Shown here: positions 11,501 to 61,460 of the stretch, one piece after another
How positions within the stretch are numbered: the first letter of the stretch is position 1
Layout: each line of letters opens with the position of its first letter
Assembly (NCBI GenBank): GCA_022729235.1
Contig: JALDAJ010000001.1
Coordinates: forward strand, 544,001 to 608,000
Direction: 5' to 3'
DNA: 64,000 nucleotides
From: Candidatus Nanohalarchaeota archaeon
Lineage (GTDB): Archaea > Nanohalarchaeota > Nanosalinia > Nanosalinales > Nanosalinaceae
Made by a program: the position numbers and the translations under genes
Notes under the pieces: model-generated
Told to the model about the DNA's origin: nothing
The model's database searches: none
Seen by the model: only the letters and a program-made list of their open reading frames with translations

Positions 11501-11625
11501 TAGCAGAGCTGGGATTTGAACCCCAGCCGCAAATCGGAGATTTGCTTGACGGCATCAAATCTTGGGCAGGGCCGCGATTTGAACTCACGCGAAAATCGAA
11601 GATTTTCTAAGTGGTTCTAAATCCA
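11501..11625. repeat. Two tandem 62-63 bp units, each a degenerate tRNA-Pro 3' end plus one hairpin
   Basis: Copies start at 11501 and 11564; hairpins GCAAATC-GGA-GATTTGC and GAAAATC-GAA-GATTTTC. Confidence 0.8.
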
Positions 11626-11698
11626 TGGCAGGGCTGGGATTTGAACCCAGGTCCGTACCGCCCCGGGGTACGATGATAGTCCACTACACTACCCCGCC
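11626..11698 (-). tRNA. tRNA-Pro(GGG)
   Basis: GGCGGGG...GTACC-CCGGGGC-GGTAC...CTGGG-TTCAAAT-CCCAG-CCCTGCC-A cloverleaf, 73 nt. Confidence 0.9.
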
Positions 11699-11855
11699 AA
11701 AATCACCTTACGCGATTTTGTGTGGATACAAAAACTCTCGCGAGTTTCGCACCCGCCGAACTTCTGAACTCGAAGACCTAGAGAGTCTTCTGTGACCAGC
11801 AACCTCGGAGAGGTTGCGGAGGTTCGATCATCATAAGGCATTCAAAGAATGCCTT
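11699..11855. repeat. Hairpin-doublet cluster upstream of tRNA-Pro with duplicated tRNA 5' end
   Basis: cccgcc repeated at 11693 and 11752; tgtggatac linker shared with the tRNA-Ser flank; further hairpins at 11769-11819 and 11835-11855. Confidence 0.75.
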
Positions 11856-11911
11856 CCAGTAGGATAGTCGCAGAGTAAAATTTTAAACGTGACCGCGGTC
11901 TTCTCGGATTC

Positions 11912-12295
11912 ATGAGACTCCTCTATATCTGCACCGGTAACTCGTTCAGGAGTCCGGTTGCTGAGGCGTTGACGAGGAAGTACCACCCAGACTGGGAAGT
12001 AGAGTCTGCGGGGACGGATGCTGTTGACCATGTCGCTGAAAATGCGAGGGTCTTGTTAGAGCAAGAAGAGGCTCTAGAATATGTGAAGCCGTCGCCGGAC
12101 CAGGTATCACAGCGAGCCGTCAGTGAGGCGGATTTGATTGTGGTGATGATGCCCTTGCATAAGGACTTCCTGCAGGAGAACTTTGACGCCGATGATAAGA
12201 TCGAGGTCTGGAGCATCGAGGACCCGATAAATCCGGGTGTGGAACCGGAGGAAGCTTTCAGGGAGATAAAGAAGAGAGTTGAGTCGATGGATTAG
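11912..12295 (+). CDS. Low-molecular-weight phosphatase/ArsC-fold protein
   Basis: CTGNSFRS P-loop, SAG, ADLIVVM, WSIEDP. Confidence 0.85.
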   Translation: MRLLYICTGNSFRSPVAEALTRKYHPDWEVESAGTDAVDHVAENARVLLEQEEALEYVKPSPDQVSQRAVSEADLIVVMMPLHKDFLQENFDADDKIEVWSIEDPINPGVEPEEAFREIKKRVESMD

Positions 12296-12302
12296 AGAGT
12301 GC

Positions 12303-14198
12303 TTATCCGAGTTCGGATTTCCCGGGAGGAAGCGCCCGGATAATATAATCCAGGTCTAGTTCATATCCGTCATCGTAGAGATGCGACTGTATTTTTTTCG
12401 CGACCTCTGACTTCTTTTCCTGCCCGGGCTTCAGATCTACTGCTGCAGGGCAGTTTTCTCTAATTGCATCTCCCGGTCCACATATAGGTACGTGGGTGCC
12501 GTTCTCCATCTCATACGGTCCTATAGACGCCTCAACGGATACATTCCTGAGGTACTCCCGATCACCTCTTATGACGAACGCACCTTTCTTCAGGTACTCG
12601 CCCGGCTCCGGCTCCTTCGTGACCTGTTCTGGCTCTACATAGTAAGCTGAGCCGGAGGTTATACCTGCCTTCCAGTTCCTGGAAAATGTCACTGCTGCCG
12701 CAGCCGCTTCTTCGAGTGTTTTCTCATCAGCTTCCTGCCCGTCCTTCACGACAACGCTGGGACCGCCTTCGAAGTCGGCGTGGAAGTAGAAATCGTTTGG
12801 TTCCATGTGTTTCTTGACCAGCATCTCGTTGGTCTGCGCGTCTCTACCGATTAACACAAGATATTCTCCTGAGGAGTAGAACCAGCGGTACTTCTCGAAC
12901 CACTGCTTGGAACGTTTATCGGACTTGTCCTCCATGGATTCTTCGACTTCCACAGTTTCCTTTTCCAGTTCTTCAAGCTTCTTCTCGGTCTCTTCAAGCG
13001 CTTCCCGGGCATTCTCCATCTTTTCCTCGGACGCCTTCGCCTTGTCGTAGTACCGTGATGCTGTCGCTTCAAGGTCTTCGAAAGGTTCTACGCGGATGTT
13101 CATATCGCCGACCTCGACTGTCACGAACTTTTCCTGTTGATTGAATCCTTTGATACGCTCTGCTTCATCATTTTCTGATTCCCTGATTCTTTCCTCGGTC
13201 TCGTCCCAGTCATGTTCTTCGATACCGCTCTCGATGCTATGCTTTATTGATTCCAGTAACTGGTAGTTCTTGTATATCATCTCCGCCTTCTCACGGTTCT
13301 CCTCGCTTGACTTCTCCAGTCCTTCTATCTTTCTCTCCTGCTGTTCCTTCTGTCTCTCCAGTCCCTGTTTTTTCTCCTCATAGACCGCCTGCTTCTTCTG
13401 TTTCTTTTCTTTATGCTCTCTGCGGTAGAAGTATTCGTCCAGTGCTTCTGAGAACGAGTCGAATCCTTCTCTCTCGTGATCGCCGTAATTCTCAAGCGGG
13501 AACGGTGCTGCCCGGACAGGTTTTTCTCCTTCCAGGTACATCACAGGATTGATTTCCGATTTCAGTATCTCGGAGATAACCTCCTTTACCTGATTCTTTT
13601 CCTCTCCTGAGAGATCTGCTACTTCCCTGTCTTTCTCTACACCTGCTCTTGCACAGATCTCTTCGGCGTAAGTCCCTCCGAGCGATAGATCGGATGCAAG
13701 TTTTCTCACGAGTTCACCATCTCCCATCAACTCGAAGTAATCTTCTTCTCGTGGATCGTTCGCGGGCTCCGGCGGGTGGTATTCCTCGCCCACCACTACG
13801 GCTCTATCGGCGTATTCCTCCTGCCTTACTGCACCTATCACTTTTCCGTCATCGATGAGAACTACATTTCCCTTGCCGAACATCTCCGCGACCAGTTTCT
13901 TGTCACCGCTCTCGATTTCCAGTATCCGGTCGAACCCGCGTTGCTCTATCGAGTCAACGCGTCCGAGGTGCTTCCTCAGCTCCATCGCAAATCCAGGTGG
14001 ACGCTCCGGGTTGTCGCGTTTGTACTTCGAGATAAAGGTGTATGAGGGACCGATTATCATCCGTTTCTTCTCGTCGCCCGGCACGTAAATCTCCAGCGTC
14101 AGTTCGTTATCGCGCTGGTACACCTGCTGTACGAAGCCTTCCTCCAGCTCCTTCAGCTCTTCCATCAGGATGGAAAGGTCGAGACTGGTTATCTCCAT
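12303..14198 (-). CDS. rqcH: Ribosome quality-control protein RqcH/NEMF (NFACT family)
   Basis: P.GFAMELRK, FDRI, EMFGKGN, WFEKYRWF, GRDAQTNE, FHAD..G. Confidence 0.92.
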   Translation of the reverse strand: MEITSLDLSILMEELKELEEGFVQQVYQRDNELTLEIYVPGDEKKRMIIGPSYTFISKYKRDNPERPPGFAMELRKHLGRVDSIEQRGFDRILEIESGDKKLVAEMFGKGNVVLIDDGKVIGAVRQEEYADRAVVVGEEYHPPEPANDPREEDYFELMGDGELVRKLASDLSLGGTYAEEICARAGVEKDREVADLSGEEKNQVKEVISEILKSEINPVMYLEGEKPVRAAPFPLENYGDHEREGFDSFSEALDEYFYRREHKEKKQKKQAVYEEKKQGLERQKEQQERKIEGLEKSSEENREKAEMIYKNYQLLESIKHSIESGIEEHDWDETEERIRESENDEAERIKGFNQQEKFVTVEVGDMNIRVEPFEDLEATASRYYDKAKASEEKMENAREALEETEKKLEELEKETVEVEESMEDKSDKRSKQWFEKYRWFYSSGEYLVLIGRDAQTNEMLVKKHMEPNDFYFHADFEGGPSVVVKDGQEADEKTLEEAAAAAVTFSRNWKAGITSGSAYYVEPEQVTKEPEPGEYLKKGAFVIRGDREYLRNVSVEASIGPYEMENGTHVPICGPGDAIRENCPAAVDLKPGQEKKSEVAKKIQSHLYDDGYELDLDYIIRALPPGKSELG

Positions 14199-14246
14199 AG
14201 AAGAAGTTTCGGGGATGAGCTACAAAAACGTAAGTCCGAAAGAAGC

Positions 14247-14783
14247 CTATTCAAACATCTCGATTCCTTCCTGCTGTCCGTCTCTTCCTTTCTGCTCGTT
14301 CTCGTACTGGTGCTTGAACTCGTCCACATCCTCCAGTTCGAAGTACTCCAGGAAGTGGTCGGTCACGTCCAGAATCGCGGTTCTGCCGTCCTTTTCTTTA
14401 CCCACAAAACCGCGTTTGACAAGCTCCTTGATGTGCTGGTATGCCCGGTTACCCCTGATCTCGACTATGTCTGCCTGCTCCACGGGTGCGTTGTAGGCTA
14501 CCAGAGAGAGCGTCCTCAGTTGACCTTCGTTAAGGTCCTGGTGTGGTGCGAGGTGTGATACGTGCTCCAGGTGATCCTTCTTCACTTTAAGTTCGTAGCC
14601 TTCAGGCGTCTCCACGAGCTCCAGTCCGCGGTGATCTTCGTCCAGTTCGTCTTGATACTCGTCTACAAGCATGTCAACGTAACCCATCGACCCGAGATCG
14701 AGTATGTCCGCAATCCGTTCGTTGTCTATCGGCTCGTCCGCGAGAAAAAGTGCTGCCTCTAACCTGGCTTTTTTGTCTTCCAT
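14247..14783 (-). CDS. scpB: Segregation and condensation protein B (kite)
   Basis: LEAALF, TLSLVAYNAPV.Q.DIVEIRG, T..FLEYF; start MEDKK at 14783. Confidence 0.92.
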   Translation of the reverse strand: MEDKKARLEAALFLADEPIDNERIADILDLGSMGYVDMLVDEYQDELDEDHRGLELVETPEGYELKVKKDHLEHVSHLAPHQDLNEGQLRTLSLVAYNAPVEQADIVEIRGNRAYQHIKELVKRGFVGKEKDGRTAILDVTDHFLEYFELEDVDEFKHQYENEQKGRDGQQEGIEMFE

Positions 14784-14814
14784 ATACGATTCTTTGGCTC
14801 TGGTATTGAAAAAC

Positions 14815-15528
14815 CTAGTTGGCAACTTCGTCTTCTGGCTTCACGTGTAGGTCGCCGAGGAACTCTTCCTGTATGCACTGCACTTTCTTGTCGTTTTCCA
14901 GGTGGAGAACGTGCATGAATTTCTCTATCCGCTCCTCATTGCTGTTTTCTTCAAGTAGCCGGGAGAACTCTATCTTATCCTTTGAGGACACCATGTTTCT
15001 TACCCGGGAGAAAAGCGAGTTTATCTTATCATTAAGCGTTTCTTCCTGCATCTCGAACTGCTGGTCTATCTCGTGGCGTTCCTCCTGCCTCTCTTCTCTC
15101 CTCTCCTTGACTTCTAGCGCGTCTTCAAGCGCGCCTTTCAACTCGTCAAGCTCCATCCTGCGTTTTGGTCGTGCCTTGACCGGCATCTCGAGTTCAGGTC
15201 CTGTTTCAAGACCGGGACCTTCATTTTCTTCCTCGAAGACATCATCGAGGTCGCCCTCGAAGTCCATAGGATTCTCCTGTGGTTCTTCCTCCTGTAATGG
15301 GTCTTCTCCGTCGATAGCCATCGACTTCATGTTCAATAATGCGGCGCATATCCTGATGGCACGCGCGGATACAGTTAAGTCTAGCTCCTGTAATTCTTCG
15401 ATGTATTCCCTGTATCGACTTGCCAGGACCGTGATATCGACATTATGCGGGTCCATGTCCCGGGTCAGAAGTTCAAGAGTCTCCTCCCAGGGCTGTTCCT
15501 TCAGTACCTGAGCTTCGTGCTGTTCCAT
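14815..15528 (-). CDS. scpA: Segregation and condensation protein A (kleisin)
   Basis: MDPHNVDI..LA..Y, A.LL.MKS, F..VLHL......C.QEEF.GD; start MEQHE at 15528. Confidence 0.9.
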   Translation of the reverse strand: MEQHEAQVLKEQPWEETLELLTRDMDPHNVDITVLASRYREYIEELQELDLTVSARAIRICAALLNMKSMAIDGEDPLQEEEPQENPMDFEGDLDDVFEEENEGPGLETGPELEMPVKARPKRRMELDELKGALEDALEVKERREERQEERHEIDQQFEMQEETLNDKINSLFSRVRNMVSSKDKIEFSRLLEENSNEERIEKFMHVLHLENDKKVQCIQEEFLGDLHVKPEDEVAN

Positions 15529-15556
15529 TATTTGGGCCCTCCTAGAGACCCTTCCC

Positions 15557-15616
15557 CCGCAAATTCCAAAGGAATTTGCTATAAGGAGCAACGTGTTGCC
15601 ACGATGCTCCGCCGCA
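15557..15616. repeat. 55-bp hairpin doublet flanked by a CCGCA duplication
   Basis: GCAAATTCC-AAA-GGAATTTGC and GGAGCA.CGTG-TTGC-CACG.TGCTCC; ccgca at 15557 and 15612. Confidence 0.6.
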
Positions 15617-15655
15617 TAGCAGAATTGGAGACAGGGATATTTAACTACAGGGGTC

Positions 15656-18190: not shown

Positions 18191-18241
18191 CGTGCAAAGA
18201 TTTTATCGGACTAGAATAAAAAAGACCGGTAAATAGGATTT

Positions 18242-18291
18242 TGTAATACAAATTAGGCGTAAATAGGGATTTTACCTGTTTTTGTATTACA
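18242..18291. repeat. 50-bp element TGTAATACA-N32-TGTATTACA, copy 1
   Basis: Same length and termini as 45154-45203. Confidence 0.75.
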
Positions 18292-18594: not shown

Positions 18595-18637
18595 GTAATC
18601 AAACATTCTTATCCTGGTTTAAGTACTCTGGCATTGA

Positions 18638-18946: not shown

Positions 18947-18978
18947 GCTAGGGGGTGCCGGGAGCGGTTGAAAACTAT

Positions 18979-38650: not shown

Positions 38651-39034
38651 TTACTTGAGCGGTACGTGCTGTGAGGACCGTGTTGCTCCGAGTCCTGGTG
38701 CACTGTGCTGTACTTCTTTCCGGGTTTTTGCGAACTCTCCCAGGTAGTGTCCCAGCATCTCTTTTTCGATGTCTACTGGGACGAAGTCCTGTCCGTTGTA
38801 TACGTGGACTGTTTTACCTACCATTTCTGGTACTACTATCATCGACCTGAAATGCGTCTTGACCGAGTCCTTATCTTCAAGGTCTTCAAGTATTTTTTTC
38901 TCCTCTCTTCTAAGTCCTCTTTCGAGTTTCCTTTTCCCTCTTGAGTTAAGAAGTTCTGCAAACTCGTCTAGAGTCATTTCCTGTAGTTCTTCGAGCTTGT
39001 GTCCTCTGAACTTCCATTCCTCGTCATTACTCAT
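38651..39034 (-). CDS. rps19: Ribosomal protein S19 (uS19)
   Basis: KTH.R.M..VPEMVG, YNG..F, M.GHYLGEF..TRK, GATRSS..VPLK. Confidence 0.96.
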   Translation of the reverse strand: MSNDEEWKFRGHKLEELQEMTLDEFAELLNSRGKRKLERGLRREEKKILEDLEDKDSVKTHFRSMIVVPEMVGKTVHVYNGQDFVPVDIEKEMLGHYLGEFAKTRKEVQHSAPGLGATRSSQHVPLK

Positions 39035-39092
39035 CTCGAAAACACCTCTGATGTTTTCTGGGTTCTTGAAACTCTACGAGTTTTACTCATCT
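39027..39092 (-). mobile_element. Putative 56-bp hairpin-doublet insertion with 10-bp target duplication TTACTCATCT
   Basis: Direct repeats at 39027-39036 and 39083-39092 flank two hairpins. Confidence 0.7.
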
Positions 39093-41826: not shown

Positions 41827-41840
41827 AGTTGATTATTCAC

Positions 41841-41984
41841 CTCGAAACTGCCTGGCAGTTTCTGCGATTGCATGAACTCCTCAGGAGTTCAGCAAGTTCC
41901 ATAGGCCTCGCAAGAGGCTTGTCCATCCGAGAACTCGAAACTCCATATAGGAGTTTCTGCGACCCCGGAACCTTAGGCTCCGGG
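41841..41984 (-). repeat. Five-hairpin cluster in the rpl3 leader, including two CTCGAAACT...AGTTTCTGCGA units
   Basis: Units at 41841-41867 and 41934-41962; other hairpins at 41873, 41905 and 41964. Confidence 0.75.
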
Positions 41985-42054
41985 CATCTAGATGGTAATT
42001 CAACAGTCACAACCAAGTTTTATAAAGGGAGCGATAGGGTGATTAGAAGCGCAA

Positions 42055-42263: not shown

Positions 42264-45110
42264 CTAACCCTTTATGTTCGCGATGGGTGTTGTGCGCACG
42301 ACTTTCTCTCCGATTCCGAGTTCGTCGGAGACCTTGATTACCTCGTCCACGTCCTTGTAGGCGCCCGGCGCCTCCTCCGCGACGGTTGAGCCTGAGGCAG
42401 CCTTCACGTAGACTCCGTCGCGCTCTAGCTCCTGCATTAAGCGTTCGCCGTAGTAGTCCTGCTTCGCCTGCGTTCTTGACATGAGCCTTCCGGCGCCGTG
42501 TGCCGTAGAGCCGAACGATATCTCAAGCGATTCCTGTCCGCCAGACAGGATGTAGCTGGAGGTTCCCATAGTTCCTGGGATGAGGACGGGCTGTCCGACG
42601 TCTTGATACACGTCTGGCACCTCTTCACGCCCAGCAGGCATCGCTCTAGTCGCGCCTTTACGGTGTACCAGAAGCTCCTTCTCCTCTCCGTCGACTTCAT
42701 GCATCTCTTTCTTGGCGATGTTGTGGCACACGTCGTACACCAGGTCTACGGTTACGTCTTCAGCGATGAGGTTGAGCGCTTCCCTGACGGCCTCCGTCAT
42801 GGCCTGCCTGTTTGCCCACGCGAAGTTGGCGGCGGCGTTCATCGCGTTCCAGTAGTCCTGGCCGAGCCTATCTCCGAGTGGTGCGTAGATCAGCTCCTTA
42901 TCAGGTATGGCATCAACTATTTCAGGGTAGTTCTCCTCGAACTTTCTGAGGTACTCGGTGCAGGTCTGGTGGCCCAGTCCCCGTGACCCGGAGTGAATCA
43001 TAACTACTATCTGGTCTTCTTCCAGGCCGTATGCCTCCGCCTTTTCATCGCTGTATACATCCTCGACTTTTTGAACCTCGAGGAAGTGGTTTCCGCTTCC
43101 AAGGGAGCCGAGCTGACCGACTCCTCTCTTTTTGGCTTTTTCTGGCACTTTGCTGGCATCTCCGTCCAGGCGACCGTTTTCCTCGCACCGTTCCAGGTCT
43201 TCCTCCTTTGCGTGTCCGTTCTCCAGCATCCATTCCATTCCTTTCTCCAGTATCTTTTCCAGGTCGTCGCGGTCGATTTCCAGGTATCCTCTACCACCAA
43301 GTCCGGTAGGTACCTTACTGAAGAGGACGTTTGCAAGTTGCTGTTCCTTGCCCTCTATGTCTTCGTAGGTCAGGCTGGTTCTGAGAACTCTTACTCCGCA
43401 GTTAGATACTATAAACTGGTTTGAAATGAAATTGTGTGCTTCATGTTTTACTCCGATGTCATAAACCTTTTCTTTTCCTGTTTTTTCTATGTGCTTAACT
43501 GTTGCTTTCACTGCTAGATTGTCTTTCACTTCTATATCTTCTGTGAATTCCTCGTAGCCGGGGAATTCTTTGGGCGGTCTTGAAGTGGTTTTCCTGCCCG
43601 AGTATATGCTTCTCTCTATAAACCTGTTGTTGATATCAAATCTCTGCTTTAGTTCCTTAGGTGCTACATTATTTTCATAGAGTTCAACGCATTTCTCTGC
43701 GATTTTCTCTCTTCTCTCAATAGCTTTCTGCTTGGTCTTAAGGTACTGTGTTGCTTTAACTGCTTTCTTCTGTTTCTCAAGGTTGTATCTGTATCCGATT
43801 CTGGTGAAGAACCGGATCAGGTTTTCAGAGTCATTTTTTATTCCGAGTCGGAACCTGATAACTTCTCCATTTTTGTTCTCGTTTGTTTCAAATTCTTCGA
43901 TCTGGTTTGTTTCTATGTCCATCTGTTTCAGGACTCTCTTGATTTCCTGCATAAACTTTCTTCCGGATTCCCTGGCTTCAATGTTCTTGTTCTGTGATAC
44001 CTTGGGACAGTAAAGATTTTTGTCATGCTGCGCTTTAGGAGAACTCATTTCTGCACCGAAAAAGGCGGATAGATAAAGTGCGACCTGCCAGTCTGCAAGT
44101 TCTGAGAGTTGCTCTGGTGTTGTGAACTCTTCTTTCGTCTTAGTTCCTTCAGGAACTCCGATTTTGGTCAGTAGTTTCCTGAAGGCCTTCGATGTTGACT
44201 TGATACTGTATTCGGTTCTCTGGAATTCTCTGTCTTTTACCTCGTGTTTTCTTTCTCTTGAATAGATGGGGGAGGGCTTGAATCCGAGTTCTTCGATGTC
44301 TTTCTGTATCTGCTTCAGGTCTTTTTCCTTACCGTAGAAAGTAGTTTCTCCGTGATTGTTGAAAGACCCGTCACCTGTGTGGAATCCTGCCAGCTTCAGC
44401 AAGATGTTGAACTCTCTGTCAGTAGTTTTCAACGGCAGTAAATCTCTTTTCTCCAGCGCCTGCACGAGCTGCTGGCTCTCGTCTTTGAAATCTTCTCTCG
44501 TGAGAACCTCTTTTTCTTTAGGGTCTTCGTCAGGAAGGCCCTTGAACGGTCGTAGGTATACTTGTGATCCTTCAGAGATCTTATCAAGTTTTTTCATACC
44601 TTCCGTTGTAAGGAAAGGATGGTCTCCTGTTGCCTTGATTTTCTCGCCAGTTTCTGTTTCGACTTTGTATACTTCTTTTTCTTCTTTTTCTGTGAATAAC
44701 TGGATTCGTGACTCGACGGGTTTCTCGGCGGTTACAACCGCCTTTTCTTTATGGAAGTTATTCTTTAGTTTTTCAATCTCTGTAGATCTCCCGAACTCCA
44801 ACAAAACCTCTGAATCGCCCGTTAAGCAGTTTATATCATAGCCGATTCCTCCGGGGCTTATAACTCCGTTTTCAGTGTCTACAGCTGCGACTCCTCCGAT
44901 AGGGAAGCCGTAGCCCTGGTGGCCGTCTGGCATCACGATAGAGTATTTCTGGATGCCGGGCAGTGTCGCAACGTTTTTCACCTGTTCCAGGGTGTCGTCC
45001 TGTTTGATTTCTTCCAGCAGTTCTTCTGAGGCGTAAACTCTGCCAGGGACGTTCATTTTTCCCTCCTTCGGGATTTCGTAGACGTTCTCTGATACTTTGT
45101 TTAGTTCCAT
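42264..45110 (-). CDS. rtcB: RNA ligase RtcB (intein-containing)
   Basis: MPD.H.GYGFPIG, GYDIN|CG, GSGNHFLE, HSGSRG, HN, HRKGA, HGAGR. Confidence 0.96.
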   Translation of the reverse strand: MELNKVSENVYEIPKEGKMNVPGRVYASEELLEEIKQDDTLEQVKNVATLPGIQKYSIVMPDGHQGYGFPIGGVAAVDTENGVISPGGIGYDINCLTGDSEVLLEFGRSTEIEKLKNNFHKEKAVVTAEKPVESRIQLFTEKEEKEVYKVETETGEKIKATGDHPFLTTEGMKKLDKISEGSQVYLRPFKGLPDEDPKEKEVLTREDFKDESQQLVQALEKRDLLPLKTTDREFNILLKLAGFHTGDGSFNNHGETTFYGKEKDLKQIQKDIEELGFKPSPIYSRERKHEVKDREFQRTEYSIKSTSKAFRKLLTKIGVPEGTKTKEEFTTPEQLSELADWQVALYLSAFFGAEMSSPKAQHDKNLYCPKVSQNKNIEARESGRKFMQEIKRVLKQMDIETNQIEEFETNENKNGEVIRFRLGIKNDSENLIRFFTRIGYRYNLEKQKKAVKATQYLKTKQKAIERREKIAEKCVELYENNVAPKELKQRFDINNRFIERSIYSGRKTTSRPPKEFPGYEEFTEDIEVKDNLAVKATVKHIEKTGKEKVYDIGVKHEAHNFISNQFIVSNCGVRVLRTSLTYEDIEGKEQQLANVLFSKVPTGLGGRGYLEIDRDDLEKILEKGMEWMLENGHAKEEDLERCEENGRLDGDASKVPEKAKKRGVGQLGSLGSGNHFLEVQKVEDVYSDEKAEAYGLEEDQIVVMIHSGSRGLGHQTCTEYLRKFEENYPEIVDAIPDKELIYAPLGDRLGQDYWNAMNAAANFAWANRQAMTEAVREALNLIAEDVTVDLVYDVCHNIAKKEMHEVDGEEKELLVHRKGATRAMPAGREEVPDVYQDVGQPVLIPGTMGTSSYILSGGQESLEISFGSTAHGAGRLMSRTQAKQDYYGERLMQELERDGVYVKAASGSTVAEEAPGAYKDVDEVIKVSDELGIGEKVVRTTPIANIKG
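43401..44828 (-). mobile_element. Intein with LAGLIDADG homing endonuclease, 476 aa
   Basis: Starts CLTGD after GYDIN; block B ATGDHPF; LAGFHTGDG; VYDI.V...HNF; ends VSN before extein Cys; lower GC. Confidence 0.93.
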
Positions 45111-46467: not shown

Positions 46468-46501
46468 GAAGAATTATTAGTTGTAGAGTATGAAGAATGT
46501 T

Positions 46502-46726
46502 CGCCGGGACTGTTCGAAGACTCTAGAGTTCCTGCATTGTGACCGGTGTTGCCGGTCGACCACCGGAGGTGGTCACTATGATCGAACTTGGTAAAGTTCG
46601 CCGGGACTGGGTTCGAAAATCAAAAGATTTTCTGCAACTCGAAACCAGAACTTGGTTTCTCGGATTTGAACCCTGAACTTCTCGTGAGAGATGTGAGGAT
46701 AATCAAATCCAGCAAGGCGTCAAAGA
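46502..46726. repeat. Partial tRNA-Ser 3'-end copies interleaved with hairpins
   Basis: cgccgggactg at 46502 and 46599; ggatttgaaccc at 46662; hairpins at 46583, 46612 and 46638. Confidence 0.75.
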
Positions 46727-46815
46727 CGCCGGGACTGGGATTTGAACCCAGGAGGGCCGTCACAGCCCACTGGTTCTCAAGACCAGCGCGATCAGCCAGA
46801 CTCCGCCATCCCGGC
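46727..46815 (-). tRNA. tRNA-Ser(TGA)
   Basis: GCCGGGA acceptor, CTGGT-CTTGAGA-ACCAG anticodon arm, long variable arm, CTGGG-TTCAAAT-CCCAG, G discriminator. Confidence 0.93.
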
Positions 46816-46923
46816 AGATTATAAATCTGCTGTGGATACAGAAACTCTTATGAGTTCCGAAGATTGTAAAATCTTCAGGACGTAGAAGATCCGTAGTGGA
46901 TCTTCGAGTTTCGCATCCCGGCA
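46816..46923. repeat. Nested hairpin doublets upstream of tRNA-Ser with duplicated 5' end
   Basis: catcccggca at 46807 and 46914; inner gagtt duplication at 46852 and 46906. Confidence 0.75.
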
Positions 46924-53775: not shown

Positions 53776-53824
53776 GTTCAGTGCCTCGAAGTTAAACTTT
53801 TTATATACCCTGTAGTGTCAAAGG

Positions 53825-53998: not shown

Positions 53999-54035
53999 GA
54001 AGAAATTATGTGGGGGTTCATGGTATTGTGTTTTT

Positions 54036-54458: not shown

Positions 54459-54523
54459 GCTGTTATCCTTGTTATCTATGCCTGAGAAGGCTTGTTTTAT
54501 AAAGGGTTTGTGGTTTCATGGCT

Positions 54524-55633
54524 TTACTCACTGCTGAATCCTGCCTTGAGGTCGATCATACCTGTTCCAACAGGTACCGACTGGCCAACTATTATATTTT
54601 CAACGATTCCTTCAAGTTCGTCTGTTTCTCCCTGGAGTGTTCCCTGGATGAGGTGTTTCTTCGTCTCCTCGAATGCGGATCTTGCCAGTATCGACTTCTT
54701 GTTCCCGACGATTCCGTAACGGGTGGTTCCGTTGAGTTCTCCTTCTTTGGTCATCATATCTGCGAGTAGCATGATGTGCCTGTCATCGACGCTGATTCCC
54801 TGGGCTGCCAGTGTTTCGTTTATCTCTTCTATAATCTGGTGTCTTAGTGCTTCTACTCCCAGGACTTTTTTGACTTCGAAGAGGTCGTTCGAGACGGTGC
54901 GGTTCTCATCTACTTCCTCTATCTTGAGTGTTTTCCTCAGGGAGGTTCCTGCAGTCTGCAGTCTCCATTCATCATTTTCTTCCTGGATAACGACCTGTTC
55001 GATTCCTTTTATCCCTTTTATCCGGGTTTCCTCTGCCTTTTCCTTTATGTCCTGTAGGTCTCTCAAGTCGTAGTCTTCTTCTGAAGAAGCGATTACGAGT
55101 TCGTTGTCTCCGGCTATCTCGATTTTCGCCTTTTTCGCTTTTTCCTGCACCCTGGATTTAACGTCTTCCATGTCAACGTCGTAGTCATCCAGTAGGTCGG
55201 CATTTAGGTTATAGGAGACTTCGAGTTGCATTATGTCGATAGTATCCTTTCTAACCAGGTCTTCCAGTGTTACTTCTCTGAGTTTCCTTGCGACTTTCTT
55301 TGCATCTTCTTCGCTACTGTAGTCTTCTTTCAGGTATACATCCATGGACGGTGTGTCAGGGTTGCGCCTGGCGTCCACGATTTCGATGAGGCGCGGAAGT
55401 CCTGCAGTAAGTGATACCTGTGCAGCTCCTGCTGCGTGGTATGTTTCCATTGTCAGCTGTGTAGCGGGTTCCGCGAGTGACTGTGCTGCAACGAGACCTA
55501 TGGCTTCTCCCGGCTCGTACTGCATCTTCTCGTATCTTTCCTCTAGTTTTTCCTGTGTTTCAGCCTCTACTCCTAGTTCCCTGTATCTTGGAGGTAGTTC
55601 CTGTGCGCGATCTTTCCAGCTTATCTCGTTCAT
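54524..55633 (-). CDS. rpoA2: RNA polymerase subunit A'' (Rpo1C)
   Basis: PGEA.G..AAQS..EPATQ, GLPRL.E, RH..L.AD.MT, AFE; start MNEIS after GAGGTGA. Confidence 0.96.
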   Translation of the reverse strand: MNEISWKDRAQELPPRYRELGVEAETQEKLEERYEKMQYEPGEAIGLVAAQSLAEPATQLTMETYHAAGAAQVSLTAGLPRLIEIVDARRNPDTPSMDVYLKEDYSSEEDAKKVARKLREVTLEDLVRKDTIDIMQLEVSYNLNADLLDDYDVDMEDVKSRVQEKAKKAKIEIAGDNELVIASSEEDYDLRDLQDIKEKAEETRIKGIKGIEQVVIQEENDEWRLQTAGTSLRKTLKIEEVDENRTVSNDLFEVKKVLGVEALRHQIIEEINETLAAQGISVDDRHIMLLADMMTKEGELNGTTRYGIVGNKKSILARSAFEETKKHLIQGTLQGETDELEGIVENIIVGQSVPVGTGMIDLKAGFSSE

Positions 55634-55646
55634 TTTTCGATCACCT

Positions 55647-58115
55647 CTAGTCCGTCTGTATCTCGGTGGATAGTATTCCTCTGTCGGATTTTTGTGGGTC
55701 AACACCGTCTTCTCCTGCCCTGAACTGGATAATCTCTCCCTCTGCGTTCCTGACGGTCTGGTCGTACTCGACTTTCAGGTCTTGCAGAGAGTTTGATACA
55801 CGGCGATACATGTATCCCGATGTTTTTGTTCTCAGCGACTTGTCCATCAGCGCCTTTCTCTGTGACATCTGGTGGAAGAACAGTTCCTGTGCGTCGAGTC
55901 CTTCAAGTATGCTTGAGGAAACGAAACCGTGTGCTTTAGGTGATAACTCTCCTTTCTTGAAGTGTGACGTTGTTCGTCCCTTGTATCCTCTGTTGATTCG
56001 CTGATCTCTTACAGAGTTCTGTCCCAGAAGACCTGCCATGGTTGTAACGTTCTGCATGGAACCTCTTGCTCCGGAGTCGGCCATGACCAGTGCGCTTGAG
56101 TCTTCATCTATCTCGTCTTCTATTATACTTCCTATATCTGTGAATACTTCGTTCAGGGTTGTCGTGATCTTGATTTCCCGGGTTTCCTCCAGGGTCTTTC
56201 CGGTTATAGCCTCCATCTCATCTCCCCTGTATCTTTCGATGACCTCTTCGGCGTTTCCTACTGTGTTCTGGATAAGTTCATTGATTTCTTCGGTTGCTTC
56301 GTCAGGTATCTCCAGGTCGTCGAGGCTGATTGAGAACCCTCTCCGTGTGAGGTAGACCGAGCCTATCCTTGAAACACGGTTCAGGAATTCTGAGACTTTG
56401 TCGCTCCCGTACTCAATATTGAGTTGCTGTATGATTTCTCCTCCGTAGTCTCCGAGTGCGTCTTCGTCCAGTACCCCCTTCACGAGTTGACCGTCTTCGA
56501 TCACCAATTCGTTGTCTTCTCCCTCGTTTATTGTCAGTGAGATGTCGTCTGGTATGAAGAGCGATACCAGGTCTTCTCCCTTTATAGTTTCCTGGTCAGG
56601 AAGAGATTTTTCGTGTTCTCCTGCCTCTGCGAGCAGGTTGAACGCTTCTTCCTGTGTTAGTTCAGTATCCCCGCGTGTCAGTAGGTACAGTCCTGACACG
56701 TAGTCCTGAAGCATGCCTAGAATCGGTGCTCCCATCTTCGGTGACTTGGCGTGTTCCTGCACCTTCATCAGTTCTTCTGCTTCCGCCCTTGCTTCCTCTG
56801 TCTGTGGCACGTGGAGGTTCATCTCGTCGCCGTCGAAGTCTGCGTTGTATGGTGCGCAGACGTTCGGGTTGATACGGAAGGTGCGTTGAGGTAGTACGCG
56901 CACCCGGTGTGCCATGATAGACATCCTGTGTAGAGATGGTTGTCGGTTGAATAGTACGACATCTTCGTCCTGGAGGTGCCGTTCGATTTTCCATCCTTCT
57001 CCAGGTTCTATCATTTCGAGTAGTTCTTCCTTGTTTTCCTCCGTTATCCTTCTTCTCCTCCCGTCAGGGTGGAAAACGTAGTTCGCGCCGGGATGTTCTT
57101 CAGGTCCGTTTTCGACCGCTTCGATCATTTCGTCGTAGTTTCTTTCATTGACTTTTCTGGCGATAGAGAGTTTCTGCGCTATTTCTTTGGGCACCCCGAC
57201 CTCGTTGATCCCTATGTTCGGGTCTGGTGATATCACTGTTCTTGCGGAGAAGTTGACACGTTTTCCTATCAGGTTCTGTCGGAACCGTCCTTCCTTACCC
57301 TGGACGCGCTCGATAAGCGACTTGAGGCTTCTTCCTGATCTGTGCCGTGCCGGTGGTACGCCAGACATGTCGTTGTAGAATAGTGTTGATACGTGGTACT
57401 GCAGTAGCTCCCAGAGGTCGTCGATAATGAACTCCGGTGCCTCGATTTCGATGTTGTTCTGCAGTCTCTTGTTAATCCTGATAATATCGACTAGTTTGTG
57501 TGTGATGTCGTCCTCACTTCTTTCACCTGTTTCCAGTGTGATGGAGGGTCTCATCGTTACAGGTGGTACCGGTACGTGTGTCAGGACGAGGTTCTTGGGG
57601 TCGCTTCCTTCGACACCCAGTACTGCCGCGTTTTCTTCCGGTATCATCGCCAGTCTTTCCCTTATTTCATCCGGCTTGATCTCGTTTCCTCCTTCGTAGA
57701 AGCTGTACGGCTTGTCGAGATCGATATCTTCCTGTTCTTCCCCGCATTCCGGGCATTCAGTCTTCAGGTTGCTTTTTCTGAGAGACTTGTCTTCATCCTT
57801 GATAAGCAGTGACTGGCATTCTGTACAGGTGAATCTGAGTAGGTTCCTGACTTTTTTGGTGTATAGTACGTGTACTACCGGTCTTGAAAGCCGGATTATA
57901 CCGAAGTGTCCCTGGCATTCTCTTATTCTCCCGCCGCATGTCTGGCAGGTCATTCCTGGGTCGATTACACCCAGTGCAGGGTCCATAACCCCGTCTTCAA
58001 CAGGGAATCCGTCTGCGTCGTATACTTCTGCCTTGTTGATTTCTTTTACAGCTATTTCCTGGAGTTTTTCCGAGCTTAGGATTCCGAAGTCAAGTTTTTC
58101 GATCTTTTTTGTCAT
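55647..58115 (-). CDS. rpoA1: RNA polymerase subunit A' (Rpo1N)
   Basis: NADFDGDEMN, GKRV.FSAR, NRQPSLH. Confidence 0.98.
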   Translation of the reverse strand: MTKKIEKLDFGILSSEKLQEIAVKEINKAEVYDADGFPVEDGVMDPALGVIDPGMTCQTCGGRIRECQGHFGIIRLSRPVVHVLYTKKVRNLLRFTCTECQSLLIKDEDKSLRKSNLKTECPECGEEQEDIDLDKPYSFYEGGNEIKPDEIRERLAMIPEENAAVLGVEGSDPKNLVLTHVPVPPVTMRPSITLETGERSEDDITHKLVDIIRINKRLQNNIEIEAPEFIIDDLWELLQYHVSTLFYNDMSGVPPARHRSGRSLKSLIERVQGKEGRFRQNLIGKRVNFSARTVISPDPNIGINEVGVPKEIAQKLSIARKVNERNYDEMIEAVENGPEEHPGANYVFHPDGRRRRITEENKEELLEMIEPGEGWKIERHLQDEDVVLFNRQPSLHRMSIMAHRVRVLPQRTFRINPNVCAPYNADFDGDEMNLHVPQTEEARAEAEELMKVQEHAKSPKMGAPILGMLQDYVSGLYLLTRGDTELTQEEAFNLLAEAGEHEKSLPDQETIKGEDLVSLFIPDDISLTINEGEDNELVIEDGQLVKGVLDEDALGDYGGEIIQQLNIEYGSDKVSEFLNRVSRIGSVYLTRRGFSISLDDLEIPDEATEEINELIQNTVGNAEEVIERYRGDEMEAITGKTLEETREIKITTTLNEVFTDIGSIIEDEIDEDSSALVMADSGARGSMQNVTTMAGLLGQNSVRDQRINRGYKGRTTSHFKKGELSPKAHGFVSSSILEGLDAQELFFHQMSQRKALMDKSLRTKTSGYMYRRVSNSLQDLKVEYDQTVRNAEGEIIQFRAGEDGVDPQKSDRGILSTEIQTD

Positions 58116-58128
58116 TATTTGTTCACCT

Positions 58129-59931
58129 CTATTCCTCCTCTTCGAGCTCGATTTCAGTATCCATCATCATGGATTTTAGCTCGTTGAGCAGTAGCAGGAA
58201 TGCGTGAGGCACCTGCGAGTCTTCAAGTTTTTCTGAGTCGCATGCGGGGCAGTAGTCGCGGTTTTCTTCGTGATCGTGGATTCCTATCTCCCCACACTTT
58301 TCACATACTTTTATCTCGGTGTTATCCGCCCCGAACCGTTCCTTGAGCAGTAGTGAGGCTCCGTGTCCTACGAAGACATCTTTTTCCATCTCTCCGAGTC
58401 GGAGTCCACCTTCCTGGCTTCTTCCCTCGGTAGGCTGTTTTGTGAGGAGGGTGACGGGACCTCTTGCACGTCCGTGTATCTTGTCCGCGACCTGGTGGTC
58501 GAGTTTGAGGTAGTATCCTGGTCCTATGAGTATATCGGCTTCCATTTCTTCTCCTGTTACTCCGTTGTACATCGTTTCCTTGCCGTGTTTCTCAAACCCT
58601 ATTTCTTCCAGTTGTTCTTTTATGTCGTCCTTGTCTTCATTGTGGAAAGCTGTCCCGTCAACAGGTTCGCCTCGTAGTGCGCCGGCTTTACCAGCTATTA
58701 GTTCGATCAGCTGTGACACGGTCATACGGCTGGGGATGGCGTGTGTTGATAGTATAACGTCAGGTGTGATTCCCTGTCTTGTGAAAGGCATGTTTTCCTC
58801 GGGGACCGTCATCCCGATAACTCCTTTCTGTCCGTGCCGGGTTGCGAACTTGTCTCCGAGTCCTGGTACACGGTACTCTCTTAGTTTTAGTTTAAGCAGT
58901 TTGTCTCCGTCTCCGGTCTCTGAAACCATGACCTTGTCTATTCGTCCTTGTTCCCCGTGTCTTACGCTGAGCGAGGTCTCTCTTCTCTCTGCAAGCCCCA
59001 TCTTGACCTCTTCTCCACCTCCGCTTCCAAGGAATTTTGGTGGTGAGGTCTTTCCTACTAGGACATCATCGGCTTCGACATCTGTTTCAGGGTTGACGAT
59101 ACCGTCGTCATCGAGGTGGTTGTATGCCTCTTCATTTCTGTATCCTCTGACATCTTTATCCGGTATCTCGATTTCGTCTTTCTGTCCTCCCCAGAAACGC
59201 TGTGCCTCTGTCTTGTATGTCCGCATGTAGGTGGAGCGCGCCAGACCTCTGTCGATTGAGTCCTGATTCATTATGATGGCGTCCTCGATGTTGTAACCAT
59301 CAAATGATGCGAGTGCGATTATCATGTTCTGTCCGATAGGGTGATTTCCTACAAGTGTATCATTTGTCTGTGTGTCAACGATAGGTTGCTGACCGTAGGT
59401 CAGGACGTTTGCGTTCGTGTCGAATCTCTGGTGGAACTCACGTGAGTACATCCCGATTCCCTGCCCGCTCATCTTTGCCCCGAAGTTAACACGGTCTCCT
59501 CTGTTGTTCTCCGGGTAGACTACTAGCGAGGCGGAGAGCCCGTGCGTTATCGCAGGATCTACCTCCATATGGGTGTGGTCCTCTGTTACTTCTTCCTCGT
59601 TCATCGCAACGTACAGGTTTTCTTCTTCCTCGGCGTCGATGTATTCGATTATACCTTCTTCCTCAAGATCTCTGAGTGTTATCTCTCCTTCATCCAGTTT
59701 CTCCCTTTGCTTGTCGGTCAGTCTTGGTTCTCCGTCTTCAACTATGATCAGAGGTCTCAGAACTCGTCCGGAGTCTGTGTTAATCCTGAGTTCGTCTTTG
59801 TCATCAGCATAGTAGACAGAGATTTCTTCATCGATTTCTCCAGATCTTCTTTTATCTATCAGGGATTCTCTAATTTCTTTAGAATCTTCTATTTCGTCGA
59901 TAATTTCGCCGTCAAGGAAAACCTTTGTCAT
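58129..59931 (-). CDS. rpoB1: RNA polymerase subunit B' (Rpo2C)
   Basis: GYNIEDA, GDKF..RHGQKG, PSRMT, GGLR.GEME. Confidence 0.97.
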   Translation of the reverse strand: MTKVFLDGEIIDEIEDSKEIRESLIDKRRSGEIDEEISVYYADDKDELRINTDSGRVLRPLIIVEDGEPRLTDKQREKLDEGEITLRDLEEEGIIEYIDAEEEENLYVAMNEEEVTEDHTHMEVDPAITHGLSASLVVYPENNRGDRVNFGAKMSGQGIGMYSREFHQRFDTNANVLTYGQQPIVDTQTNDTLVGNHPIGQNMIIALASFDGYNIEDAIIMNQDSIDRGLARSTYMRTYKTEAQRFWGGQKDEIEIPDKDVRGYRNEEAYNHLDDDGIVNPETDVEADDVLVGKTSPPKFLGSGGGEEVKMGLAERRETSLSVRHGEQGRIDKVMVSETGDGDKLLKLKLREYRVPGLGDKFATRHGQKGVIGMTVPEENMPFTRQGITPDVILSTHAIPSRMTVSQLIELIAGKAGALRGEPVDGTAFHNEDKDDIKEQLEEIGFEKHGKETMYNGVTGEEMEADILIGPGYYLKLDHQVADKIHGRARGPVTLLTKQPTEGRSQEGGLRLGEMEKDVFVGHGASLLLKERFGADNTEIKVCEKCGEIGIHDHEENRDYCPACDSEKLEDSQVPHAFLLLLNELKSMMMDTEIELEEEE

Positions 59932-59946
59932 TTTGTTATCACCTTT

Positions 59947-61404
59947 TTACTGGGCTTCAAGCCCTTCTTCCTCAAGTTTTGCTCTAAGTGAGTTTTTCTC
60001 CATATCGTTCATTCCCGTGGAAACGTTCGCGCTCATAGCGAGATACGTTCTCAGTCCGATGTTCATACCCTCCGGTGTCTTGATAGGGTCGATGCGTCCC
60101 CACTGTGTCGGGTGCAGGTCACGCGCCTCGAAGTGCTGTCTCTCGCTTGAAAGAGGTGAGACAACATTTCTGAGGTGTGAAAGAGTCTTGATCCTGTTGT
60201 CTCTGTCAAGTCTCTGGCATACTCCTGTTCTACCTCCTACCCAGTTACCTGTCGCCATAGCTCCCATAATCTGCTTGCTGAGGGTGTCTGAGACGATTGT
60301 GGACTGGAGAGATGGTAGGCGTCCACGTTTCGCGCTCTTCCTGAAGTTGTACTTCATGCGGGCGAGCAGACCCCATTTCCCGAGGAACACTGACCTGAAC
60401 TGCATCTCCAGCAGTTCTCCCGCCAGGTTGAGCCTCTTGTTTGCGTAATGGTCCATGTCGTCTTCATTGATGTCGCCCTTTCCTAACGCGATGGTGTTTC
60501 GTATCATGTTTGCGAGGAACTCTGCCTTTTCCTCGCGGTACTCAGGTTCCTGCCCTAGGTGTGGTAGCAGGTAGTCGTCTAGTATGCTTTCTACACGTTC
60601 TTCGACATCCGATGTGATTCCTGCCTGGTTCGCCACGTATTCGTAGGCTTCTTCCTGGTTGCTCGCATCTGTTTCGTACATGTTCAGGTAGACATCGCTC
60701 GCGTACTCTTCTCCAATAGCCTGTACGATTTCACGGTCAGTCTCGTACCCGAGTGCCCTGATAAGTGCGACTGCCGGTGTTTTCTTCACGTTAGCGAACG
60801 AGATGTTGACGATGTCGTCATCGCGTCTGAGAACGTGTCGCTGTACGTAGCCTGCCTGTTCGGAGTTGATACGGCAGACCTGTTCTCCGTCGTCATCCTG
60901 GTAGATGGGCTTGTTGTCTGCCATCTCTTCCATGCAGATAAGCGTTTTCTCGGAGCCGTTGACTATAAAGTATCCGCCAGGGTCTTCAGGGTCTTCTCCT
61001 GCATCTCTTAACTCCTCGTCGTCCATGTCTGAGGTCCAGCACAGGTCGCCTCCGATCATTACAGGTATCTGACCTATCGTTACTTCCTCAGATTCCTGCT
61101 GTACTCCCTCGAAAATCGGTGTCATCGTGACCTTGATCTCTGAGGAATAAGTGAGGTCTCGCATCCGTGCTTCTTTCGGAAGCACCTTTCTTACGGACCC
61201 GTCTGCCTCGTTGATATGAGGTCTCTTGATATTTACGTCTACTATCTTGATAACCAGTTCCTCTCCTTCCGGGAGGTCGGGTTTAATCTCGCCTACCTCG
61301 TTTAGAATAGCCTGTATCCTGTCTTCAACAAAACGGTTGTAGGAGTCGATCTGGTGTTTAACCATGTTCTGCTCGATGAGCTGGGAGAGGAATTCTTCTT
61401 TCAC
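59947..61404 (-). CDS. rpoB2: RNA polymerase subunit B'' (Rpo2N)
   Basis: SYN.F, GGYFIVNG.E, DHY.NKR, RDLHPTQWG, TPEG; GTG start. Confidence 0.96.
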   Translation of the reverse strand: MKEEFLSQLIEQNMVKHQIDSYNRFVEDRIQAILNEVGEIKPDLPEGEELVIKIVDVNIKRPHINEADGSVRKVLPKEARMRDLTYSSEIKVTMTPIFEGVQQESEEVTIGQIPVMIGGDLCWTSDMDDEELRDAGEDPEDPGGYFIVNGSEKTLICMEEMADNKPIYQDDDGEQVCRINSEQAGYVQRHVLRRDDDIVNISFANVKKTPAVALIRALGYETDREIVQAIGEEYASDVYLNMYETDASNQEEAYEYVANQAGITSDVEERVESILDDYLLPHLGQEPEYREEKAEFLANMIRNTIALGKGDINEDDMDHYANKRLNLAGELLEMQFRSVFLGKWGLLARMKYNFRKSAKRGRLPSLQSTIVSDTLSKQIMGAMATGNWVGGRTGVCQRLDRDNRIKTLSHLRNVVSPLSSERQHFEARDLHPTQWGRIDPIKTPEGMNIGLRTYLAMSANVSTGMNDMEKNSLRAKLEEEGLEAQ

Positions 61405-61460
61405 TCGAAAACACCTCGGGTGTTTTCTGCGAGTCCAGAATCTCTTTTAGATTCGTTCAT
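61401..61460 (-). mobile_element. Putative 56-bp hairpin-doublet insertion at the rpoB'' start, encoding a 19-codon leader ORF
   Basis: ATGAACGAA at 61460 vs GTGAAAGAA at 61404; two hairpins; shares CAGAAAACA...GAGGTGTTTTCGAG with the rps19 copy. Confidence 0.65.

Follow-up and report, generated by a model that had tools for sequence, protein, structure and literature searches.

Bacterial REP/BIME sequences are short extragenic palindromes, often arranged as inverted pairs, that occur in tens of copies and are frequently intercistronic. MIRUs are intercistronic operon units of ~50–100 base pairs (bp) with a small open reading frame (ORF) that overlaps the stop and start codons of the flanking genes; they mainly form tandem arrays and not paired hairpins, and we know of no report of them in tRNA introns or ribozyme genes. 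Haloarchaea harbor PATEs, i.e., small non-autonomous elements with subterminal hairpins that depend on a Y1 TnpA and are related to tnpB-bearing insertion sequences (IS), and integration at the T-loop of tRNA genes leaves the repeat pattern of T-loop-class att sites. Here, we describe a family of paired hairpins (doublets) from a 64,000-nucleotide (nt) window of DNA, which corresponds to positions 544001–608000 of one 1,027,595-nt contig (48.5% G+C) of a Candidatus Nanohalarchaeota genome (G000); coordinates are those of the window unless marked genome. The hairpin pairs appear, on balance, to be a non-autonomous insertion module resembling miniature inverted-repeat transposable elements (MITEs), copies of which have been gained and lost between genus-level relatives.

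In its behavior the family resembles MITEs or small repeats of the REP type, and the RAYT that defines the latter was not found in the 21 genomes searched. As in REP/BIME, the copies are short palindromes outside genes, form inverted pairs and are found between cistrons, with 59 GAA-closed intergenic hairpins against 1.2 expected. Unlike REP/BIME, they reside in an archaeal host, are oriented with transcription and lack a RAYT/Y1 partner in 21 genomes; furthermore, the nanohaloarchaeal copies lie at start codons, where they provide a Shine-Dalgarno site together with a start, and also in tRNA introns and RNase P RNA. The copies at gene junctions resemble MIRUs in the overlap arrangement of the small ORF, with no relation in sequence. 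In contrast to PATEs and the miniatures of IS200/IS605, neither Y1 TnpA nor TnpB was found over the cut-off in G000. Likeness to tRNA-targeting integrative elements is confined to the repeats that flank tRNA genes, i.e., direct repeats from T-loop to 3′ end, in tandem and bracketing cargo; these differ from such elements in being units of ~45–60 nt with a hairpin only, and in having no integrase in the arrays.

For the Thermoproteales, similar introns in tRNAs of different isotypes have been taken to indicate gain at the DNA level, by a mechanism that a review calls unknown (PMC4090602), and a 2026 preprint treats the question of how introns arrive as still open. Compared with the transposed introns of Thermoproteales, the nanohaloarchaeal module is found also outside tRNA genes, and with filled and empty sites between relatives. 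A literature search that did not extend to supplementary files found no description of the hairpin-pair family.

Results

An over-represented family of hairpin pairs

Perfect hairpins (stem of at least 7, loop of 3–9) number 198 in 129,294 nt of intergenic DNA, compared with 51 ± 6 in 100 dinucleotide shuffles of that DNA. Hairpins closed by GAA...TTC account for 59, compared with 1.2 ± 1.0 (maximum 4) in the shuffles, and a GAA start is seen in only 12 of the 268 such hairpins in coding DNA, the intergenic and coding counts being approximate because gene boundaries were taken from a home-made ORF caller (1130 genes, 87% coverage). The flanks give the hairpin an orientation, (Y)-GCA-GAAR-stem-loop-stem-YTTC-GAG, which reads CTC-GAAR...YTTC-TGC on the opposite strand. 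The usual unit is a pair of ~49–57 nt that takes one of two forms: a variable first hairpin (hp1) followed by the GCA...GAG hairpin (hp2), or a symmetric pair in which CGAA-stem-TTCTG and CAGAA-stem-TTCGA are joined by a linker of 2–10 nt. The transcribed strand carries the 3′ hairpin, hp2, as Y-GCA-GAAR...YTTC-GAG in a conserved frame.

This agrees in most respects with the sequence-only reading of the window from which the analysis started: every hairpin named there is present where it had been placed, the excess over the shuffled background is real, and the inverted pairing, the unit size of 50–59 nt and the nesting of units were all seen. A second type of hairpin that it had defined, type B (GCAA...TTGC), does exist, but as a minor variant with six intergenic copies; at one position of RNase P RNA, G000 has a type-B hairpin and its same-genus relative G001 a GAAG hairpin instead. 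The proposed tie to essential genes, in contrast, was not borne out: members occur throughout the genome wherever non-coding sequence is transcribed, among other places in tRNA introns, in RNase P RNA and in the flanks of rRNA genes.

The following features of the window are found at junctions, in a leader and in a spacer of protein-coding genes.

61405–61460, minus strand: doublet at the junction of rpoH and rpoB (N-terminal part); hp1 GAATCT/AGATTC, linker, then GCA-GAAAACACC-cga-GGTGTTTTC-GAG, as read from the sequence
61401–61460, minus strand: rpoB-junction mini-ORF of 19 codons, from the ancestral ATG to a TGA that overlaps the new GTG (GTGA), confirmed by translation
39030–39090, minus strand: doublet at the rpl2-to-rps19 junction, with the rpl2 stop codon within hp1
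41836–41895, minus strand: rpl3 leader doublet 2; hp1 GAACTCC/GGAGTTC, then GCA-GAAACTGCC..GGCAGTTTC-GAG
41929–41992, minus strand: rpl3 leader doublet 1, within the apical loop of an ancestral leader hairpin
15559–15579, no strand assigned: type-B hairpin GCAAATTCC/GGAATTTGC in the smc/scpA spacer, which is not alignable with that of G001

The identities of the flanking genes were confirmed as SMC, ScpA, the ribosomal proteins L2, S19 and L3, RpoH and the N-terminal part of RpoB. The rpoH/rpoB doublet carries the Shine-Dalgarno sequence GAGGTG and a new GTG start; in the rpl2/rps19 doublet, GAGGTG falls within hp2, where it spans the loop and 3′ arm and immediately precedes the ATG. G001 retains the latter doublet at this site; its hp1 shows a compensatory change, and there are U·G/G·U wobbles that pair only on the sense strand. 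Leader doublet 2 is present only in G000 among 12 family genomes compared. Leader doublet 1 is common to G000, G001 and G005, where the hp1 stems differ yet pair, and was not seen in the other eight genomes that reach this part of the leader, the G010 locus being cut off. In the only sequencing run that contains the locus, contigs cross both the rpl3 leader and the rpoB junction with no difference from G000, and the sole break is in the repeated trailer of tRNA-Ser; the run is probably the assembly's own source and therefore gives no independent support.

Rfam matches in the window at the gathering score consist of two tRNAs only, and the rpl3 leader has no match at E ≤ 1. A hairpin of this leader, upstream of rpl3 (41896–41928, minus strand; GGACAAGCCTC-loop-GAGGCCTATGG), is recognizable, with base changes, in 12 of 12 family genomes; it lies downstream of a conserved TTTATAAAA promoter box, and the ribosomal-protein operon may be autoregulated there. 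Adjoining the leader is the gene for the tRNA-splicing ligase RtcB (42264–45110, minus strand), which owes its length of 948 amino acids to an intein, the Intein_splicing domain lying between RtcB segments.

Filled and empty sites among relatives

The family was traced in other genomes with a covariance model, R1, built from hp2 with 8-nt flanks and 50 training copies. At E ≤ 0.01, R1 has matches in 52 of 70 genomes of the phylum (0–30 copies each), and copy numbers are patchy within genera, e.g., 0–7 in g2 and 0–9 in g28; at E ≤ 0.1, there are 49 matches in G000, 32 in G001 and 4–27 in 11 other genomes of the same family. These E-values are rough, and the model is somewhat circular because its training copies were partly chosen by their flanks.

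Gain and loss were followed by comparison with the whole of G001, a draft assembly of 35 contigs and 1,072,872 nt. Spacers between coding sequences contain GAA hairpins in 51 cases in G000, 20 of which have both flanks syntenic in G001. Half of these 20 are empty in G001, where they measure −16 to 29 nt compared with 52–135 nt in G000; the ten size differences are 53, 68, 53, 59, 110, 56, 55, 50, 84 and 87 nt. Another four are larger in G001, one of them by virtue of a doublet of 54 nt that lies within the 5′ arm of a hairpin common to both genomes. The rpoH/rpoB junction is short (AAGGTGA, six bases, ATG) in 17 of 17 relatives, G001 included, and the 56-nt doublet is found only in G000. Inserts are flanked by repeats of 3–6 nt, in one case ~18 nt, which are single copy at the empty sites of G001. 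Empty sites of this kind in relatives had been set beforehand as the test for the non-autonomous insertion element proposed in the sequence-only reading, and that part of the proposal is supported; its corollary, duplication of the target, is at most partly right, the flanking repeats coinciding with stop and start codons.

At four junctions of two ribosomal-operon genes, compared in 14 genomes each, inserts are distributed patchily and fill the site in 8, 3, 5 and 3 of the 14 genomes, respectively. The inserts at these junctions are homologous across genera. At the junction filled in eight genomes, G000 is filled and G001 empty, and more distant genera are filled with inserts that are ~85% similar as judged by eye. 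Such a pattern requires either repeated insertion of one sequence family at sites of one kind, or old insertions followed by several precise losses. The junction copies constitute a sequence family and are not defined by structure alone, as had been supposed.

Junction copies and translation

The junction inserts sit at stop/start overlaps of the ATGA type. At the left border, ATG(A) is followed by CGAA..., and at the right border ...TTCG runs into either AGTG-A or AGTA-ATG. Located 7–9 nt before the new start codon is GAGGTG or GGTGA, in the loop and 3′ arm of hp2. In seven of the ten filled-versus-empty sites, the ancestral start opens a mini-ORF of 18–19 codons, the stop of which overlaps the new start as ATGA, GTGA or TAATG (six listed by script and one read by eye), and seven of the ten size differences equal 2 mod 3, the value that this overlap arrangement requires. 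Translational coupling at ATGA/TGATG overlaps is described for archaea (PMC6728339). By such coupling, the downstream gene would be translated through termination–reinitiation, with the terminating ribosome opening hp2.

Copies in tRNA introns and other structured RNAs

ARAGORN detects 35 tRNAs in G000, 20 of them with introns of 30–203 nt, inserted at positions 37–42. Seven introns in five isotypes (Arg three times, Thr, Lys, Leu and Gln) begin with CCTCAAG-stem-GAGGA, followed by GA-GAAR-hairpin-GA. All six exact matches of this 5′ pattern in G000 are tRNA introns, and a control pattern has none; outside G000 and G005 the pattern is noisy because GA-rich coding DNA matches both pattern and control. 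In the predicted folds, the anticodon stem is followed by a short helix of 3–5 bp and a 3-nt 3′ bulge, whereas on the 5′ side hp1 and hp2 join the helix in a three-way junction. Position and fold accord with archaeal bulge-helix-bulge tRNA introns, which typically interrupt the tRNA at or near 37/38 and have a helix of 4 bp and bulges of 3 nt where exon and intron meet. Both EndA and RtcB are encoded in G000, and the intron copies are predicted to be spliced. Intron content differs between the two relatives: the introns of tRNA-Arg(UCG) and tRNA-Arg(UCU) are present only in G000, and those of tRNA-Gly(UCC) and tRNA-Leu(UAG) only in G001.

The training set of a second covariance model, R2, consisted exclusively of 22 copies from mRNA junctions and leaders. 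Among the matches of R2 are the introns of tRNA-Arg(GCG) (E 8.3e-4), tRNA-Thr(UGU) (1.5e-3), tRNA-Leu(GAG) (0.032) and tRNA-Arg(UCU) (0.063), as well as RNase P RNA (0.092), the trailer of 23S rRNA (0.026) and a dozen trailers and leaders of tRNA genes. Matches outside the training set are in sense to the associated stable-RNA gene in 20 of 22 cases.

The gene for RNase P RNA (genome 267625–268108) is 484 nt long, compared with a model of 288 positions, and would be missed by standard annotation because its score of 79.8 bits is just below the Rfam gathering score of 84. It is expanded by several inserts of ~40–55 nt, including a 51-nt doublet between conserved core segments. The RNase P RNA of G001 keeps this doublet, with a compensated hp1, and has an extra doublet of 53 nt after the 5′ strand of P4; that of G000 holds a 50-nt insert with no counterpart in G001. 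Doublets of the intron type are also located 30–75 nt before 16S rRNA and 37–90 nt after 23S rRNA, the 23S doublet branching from a predicted processing stem.

Over half of the detected tRNAs have introns in G000 and G001, for which ARAGORN gives 35 and 31 tRNAs, respectively; the Rfam tRNA model gives 30 in G000. Some tRNAs are called in one of the two genomes only (in G001, for example, tRNA-Asn and tRNA-Lys(CUU)), and others in G000 only; it is therefore probable that interruptions hide several tRNA genes from detection. Hidden or split tRNAs were considered as a source of tRNA-like pieces and rejected, since a T-arm scan and RF00005 gave none beyond the 35 of ARAGORN. The hairpins GAAACTG/CAGTTTC and GAAACTT/AAGTTTC abut the first base of tRNA-Val(GAC) and tRNA-Ser(CGA) (genome 91935–91952 and 700686–700703), two genes without the usual TTTAAAA promoter box at about −30.

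Repeats of tRNA ends are a separate phenomenon

The flanks of the two tRNA genes of the window contain both hairpins and copies of tRNA ends; tRNA 5′-end copies elsewhere in the genome are added in the last line.

11625–11699, minus strand: tRNA-Pro(GGG), from tRNA search
11764–11825, minus strand: doublet in the 5′ flank of tRNA-Pro(GGG); type-B hp1 GCAACCTC/GAGGTTGC, then CA-GAAGAC..GTCTTC-GAG
11565–11624, minus strand: tRNA-Pro trailer unit 1; GAAAATC/GATTTTC, then a decayed tRNA-Pro 3′-end copy (T-arm and acceptor strand); R2 E 0.0035
11503–11564, minus strand: tRNA-Pro trailer unit 2; type-B GCAAATC/GATTTGC, then a second tRNA 3′-end copy
10773–10797, minus strand: third tRNA-Pro 3′-end copy, which together with unit 2 brackets the RHH and ParE cassette at 10872–11414 (plus strand)
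46725–46816, minus strand: tRNA-Ser(UGA), from tRNA search
46598–46680, minus strand: copy of the tRNA-Ser(UGA) T-arm and acceptor strand, split after TTCAAATCC by a 49-nt doublet at 46613–46661; R2 E 5.4e-4
46501–46540, minus strand: second, partial tRNA-Ser 3′-end copy, preceded by an imperfect GAA-type hairpin
46857–46910, no strand assigned: 54-nt symmetric doublet upstream of tRNA-Ser, nested in a leader hairpin
genome 716146–716260, 248390–248466 and 931200–931275: tRNA 5′-end copies

In 10 of 35 tRNAs, the last 12 nt (3′ strand of the T-stem and acceptor strand, at most one mismatch) recur 43–143 nt downstream on the same strand, and two such units are present at tRNA-Lys, tRNA-Pro(GGG), tRNA-Ser(UGA) and tRNA-Gly(UCC). 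The repeats beside tRNA-Pro and tRNA-Ser are the 3′ end of the tRNA itself, from T-loop to discriminator base. They had been read as target duplications made by the hairpin element; being att-like tRNA ends, these direct repeats do not derive from it. The repeats at tRNA flanks are the signature of T-loop integration and represent a second phenomenon that is separate from the hairpin element. Several of the 3′-end copies contain a doublet of 49–50 nt within the pseudo-T-loop, after TTCAAATCC, and an element nearly identical to that of tRNA-Ser(UGA) lies 3′ of tRNA-Ser(GGA) (genome position 227.8 kb). The doublet in the 5′ flank of tRNA-Pro is recovered by R2 at E 0.0049, though it is outside the training set, and the leader hairpin of tRNA-Pro that matches that of tRNA-Ser has no symmetric doublet (the two leaders compared by eye).

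The bracketed pair at 10872–11414 (plus strand) encodes an RHH (CopG-like) protein and ParE, and the tRNA-Pro(GGG) 3′-end copies around it span 10773–11624. The G+C content is 39.5% at 10001–12000, compared with ~49% elsewhere in the window, and the segment 5264–11876 has no counterpart in the syntenic region of G001 (6.6 kb versus 0.9 kb). A defense-type array of cassettes (PIN, RHH with ParE, and MNT nucleotidyltransferase with HEPN) is located 3′ of tRNA-Pro(UGG) at genome 156137–159626, where tRNA-Pro 3′-end copies at genome 156523 and 158731 separate the cassettes. Genes of the PF00589 integrase family number two, at 841 kb and 863 kb, both outside the tRNA repeat arrays and one beside tRNA-Thr. 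Genome 830000–862000, which adjoins tRNA-Thr(GGU) and has an integrase-family frame of 472 amino acids directly 3′ of the tRNA, is of low G+C content (37–45% versus 48.5%) and is probably an integrated element; a search for the attR repeat of this island was negative. The tRNA 5′-end copies lie upstream of tRNA-Tyr, where a GAAACC hairpin comes after the copy, and of tRNA-Leu(UAG) and tRNA-Leu(GAG), which share a leader.

Search for a mobilizing enzyme and for known motifs

The Y1 HUH transposase/RAYT family (PF01797), genes of which typically have REP repeats on their flanks, has no match at E ≤ 0.01 in 21 genomes, and a positive control matched in 6 of 14 named genomes. MITEs derive from DDE transposons and share terminal inverted repeats with a parent IS. 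In G000, TnpB (PF07282) gave no match over the cut-off, with three zinc-ribbon-like matches below threshold; RVT_1 reverse transcriptase gave no match; and DDE_Tnp_1 (PF01609, the sole DDE family searched) gave one sub-threshold fragment of 44 residues at genome 31204–31332.

Known structures were weighed for hp2 and rejected. A K-turn does not fit, since after the 3-nt GCA bulge GA faces UC in Watson–Crick pairing and not as sheared G·A (judged by eye); nor is hp2 a complete bulge-helix-bulge, the stems being perfect, with no second bulge. A weak outer helix is present, in which −4:+1 pairs in 44, −5:+2 in 21 and −6:+3 in 16 of 50 copies, counts that are affected by selection bias in the flanks. 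The flank pattern without a pairing requirement has 91 matches compared with 69–73 for controls and does not discriminate. Viral carriers were rejected as well: four exact matches in a collection of viral contigs are at about chance level by a rough estimate, three of these contigs having the seeded match only and one a single further match (E 0.0066), and no contig has many copies. Integron attC sites (no GTTRRRY-type ends seen), primer-binding sites (copies without CCA) and target duplications of casposons were considered too and are not favored.

Discussion

The reading we favor is that of a MITE-like module that probably moves as DNA. The module would have spread through Nanohaloarchaeota-type genomes, and copies would survive only where the RNA of the host tolerates them. 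At one class of sites, the stop/start overlaps of cistrons, the module would bring a Shine-Dalgarno site along with a GTG or ATG start, and the old start codon would become that of a mini-ORF whose stop overlaps the new start. The other class would comprise loops and junctions of structured RNAs: anticodon loops of tRNAs, where a bulge-helix-bulge intron would have the module as its body, the leader of 16S and the trailer of 23S rRNA, RNase P RNA, hairpins of mRNA leaders, and the T-loops of att-like tRNA copies. We suggest, tentatively, that a mobile hairpin-pair element may still be active in this lineage, that its tRNA introns may be copies of this element, and that other copies insert elsewhere than in tRNA genes. 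Introns, inserts in RNase P RNA and rRNA processing stems, and self-compensating coupling cassettes at stop/start overlaps would be three settings of one module, each with sites that are filled in one relative and empty in another.

Several points weigh against mobility of the module. There are no near-identical pairs of full-length copies in the genome that would qualify as donors, the best being 92% identical over 25–26 nt, and a mobilizing enzyme was not found among Y1_Tnp, TnpB, RVT_1 and DDE_Tnp_1, the families searched; movement would depend on an enzyme acting in trans. The repeats that flank the inserts are weak evidence for target-site duplication because they coincide with ATG/TGA codons that selection demands. 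The patchy distribution at the four ribosomal-operon junctions could result from one old insertion followed by several precise losses. Some copies are kept at orthologous sites with compensatory changes and sense-strand wobbles, which fits selection at the RNA level as well, and plain transposition of DNA leaves the strong sense bias unexplained.

It is conceivable, though we consider it rather unlikely, that the hairpins are not mobile at all but are functional RNA elements, i.e., processing, stability or coupling signals and expansions of stable RNAs, that arise and decay in place and owe their likeness to shared constraints, namely Shine-Dalgarno–anti-Shine-Dalgarno pairing (GGUG/CACC) and stop/start overlaps. 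Orthologous conservation with compensatory changes and sense-only wobbles at rps19, rpl3 leader doublet 1 and the 3′ doublet of RNase P RNA would be expected on this account, as would the sense bias of 20 of 22 matches, and the 2 mod 3 bias and mini-ORF overlaps show selection on translation. Decay and growth in place are, however, difficult to reconcile with spacers that differ by whole units of 50–59 nt with clean boundaries, with one sequence family of ~52 nt at different junctions and in different genera, or with doublets that are nested in hairpins and inserted into RNase P RNA and the T-loop copies of tRNAs. Moreover, the rpoB junction functions without an insert in 17 of 18 genomes.

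An improbable variant of mobility is a bulge-helix-bulge intron-like element that moves via RNA, either by the splicing endonuclease and RtcB ligase or by transcription-linked recombination. Such a route would account for copies lying in sense within transcribed structured RNA, and the module does form the intron body in at least seven tRNAs of five isotypes and occurs in RNase P RNA and rRNA processing stems, in a genome that encodes EndA and an intein-bearing RtcB. The borders of junction and leader copies, however, have no canonical bulge-helix-bulge (by eye and from folds), and a search for RVT_1-family reverse transcriptases was negative. EndA has one frame, of 198 amino acids, and presumably resembles the homotetramer type with narrow specificity, which we count against this route.

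It is very improbable that tyrosine integrases acting at tRNA genes left all of the repeats as scars, i.e., as att sites and remnants of element arms. The 3′-end repeats downstream of 10 of 35 tRNAs, their tandem units, their bracketing of RHH–ParE and HEPN–MNT cassettes, and two PF00589 genes, one of them beside tRNA-Thr, are all accommodated by it, but tRNA-like repeats are absent from copies at junctions and in leaders, introns and RNase P RNA, and several trailers have the doublet within the att-like copy, i.e., as an insertion of later date. A REP/BIME (REPIN) family mobilized by a RAYT, the link drawn in the sequence-only reading, is hardly credible despite the short, palindromic, extragenic and often inversely paired copies, as PF01797 is absent from all 21 genomes searched with a working control and no TnpB over the cut-off was found.

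If the tRNA introns are copies of a still-active element, its mobilization would fall to a host enzyme or one acting in trans, of a type that has so far had no association with such elements. On the favored reading, the junction copies would represent a selfish insert that offsets the damage it does, since it brings with it a stop/start overlap, a start codon and a site for ribosome binding. For annotation, the inserts are the reason that RNase P RNA falls below the gathering threshold and probably also that only 30–35 tRNAs are detected by two tRNA finders. Because one module is found in tRNA genes as well as elsewhere, and its gains and losses can be followed between alignable genomes, the origin of introns becomes testable by comparison and by experiment; if the tRNA introns are indeed copies of it, no earlier system would have offered a direct view of both the donors and the arrival sites in the gain of archaeal tRNA introns.

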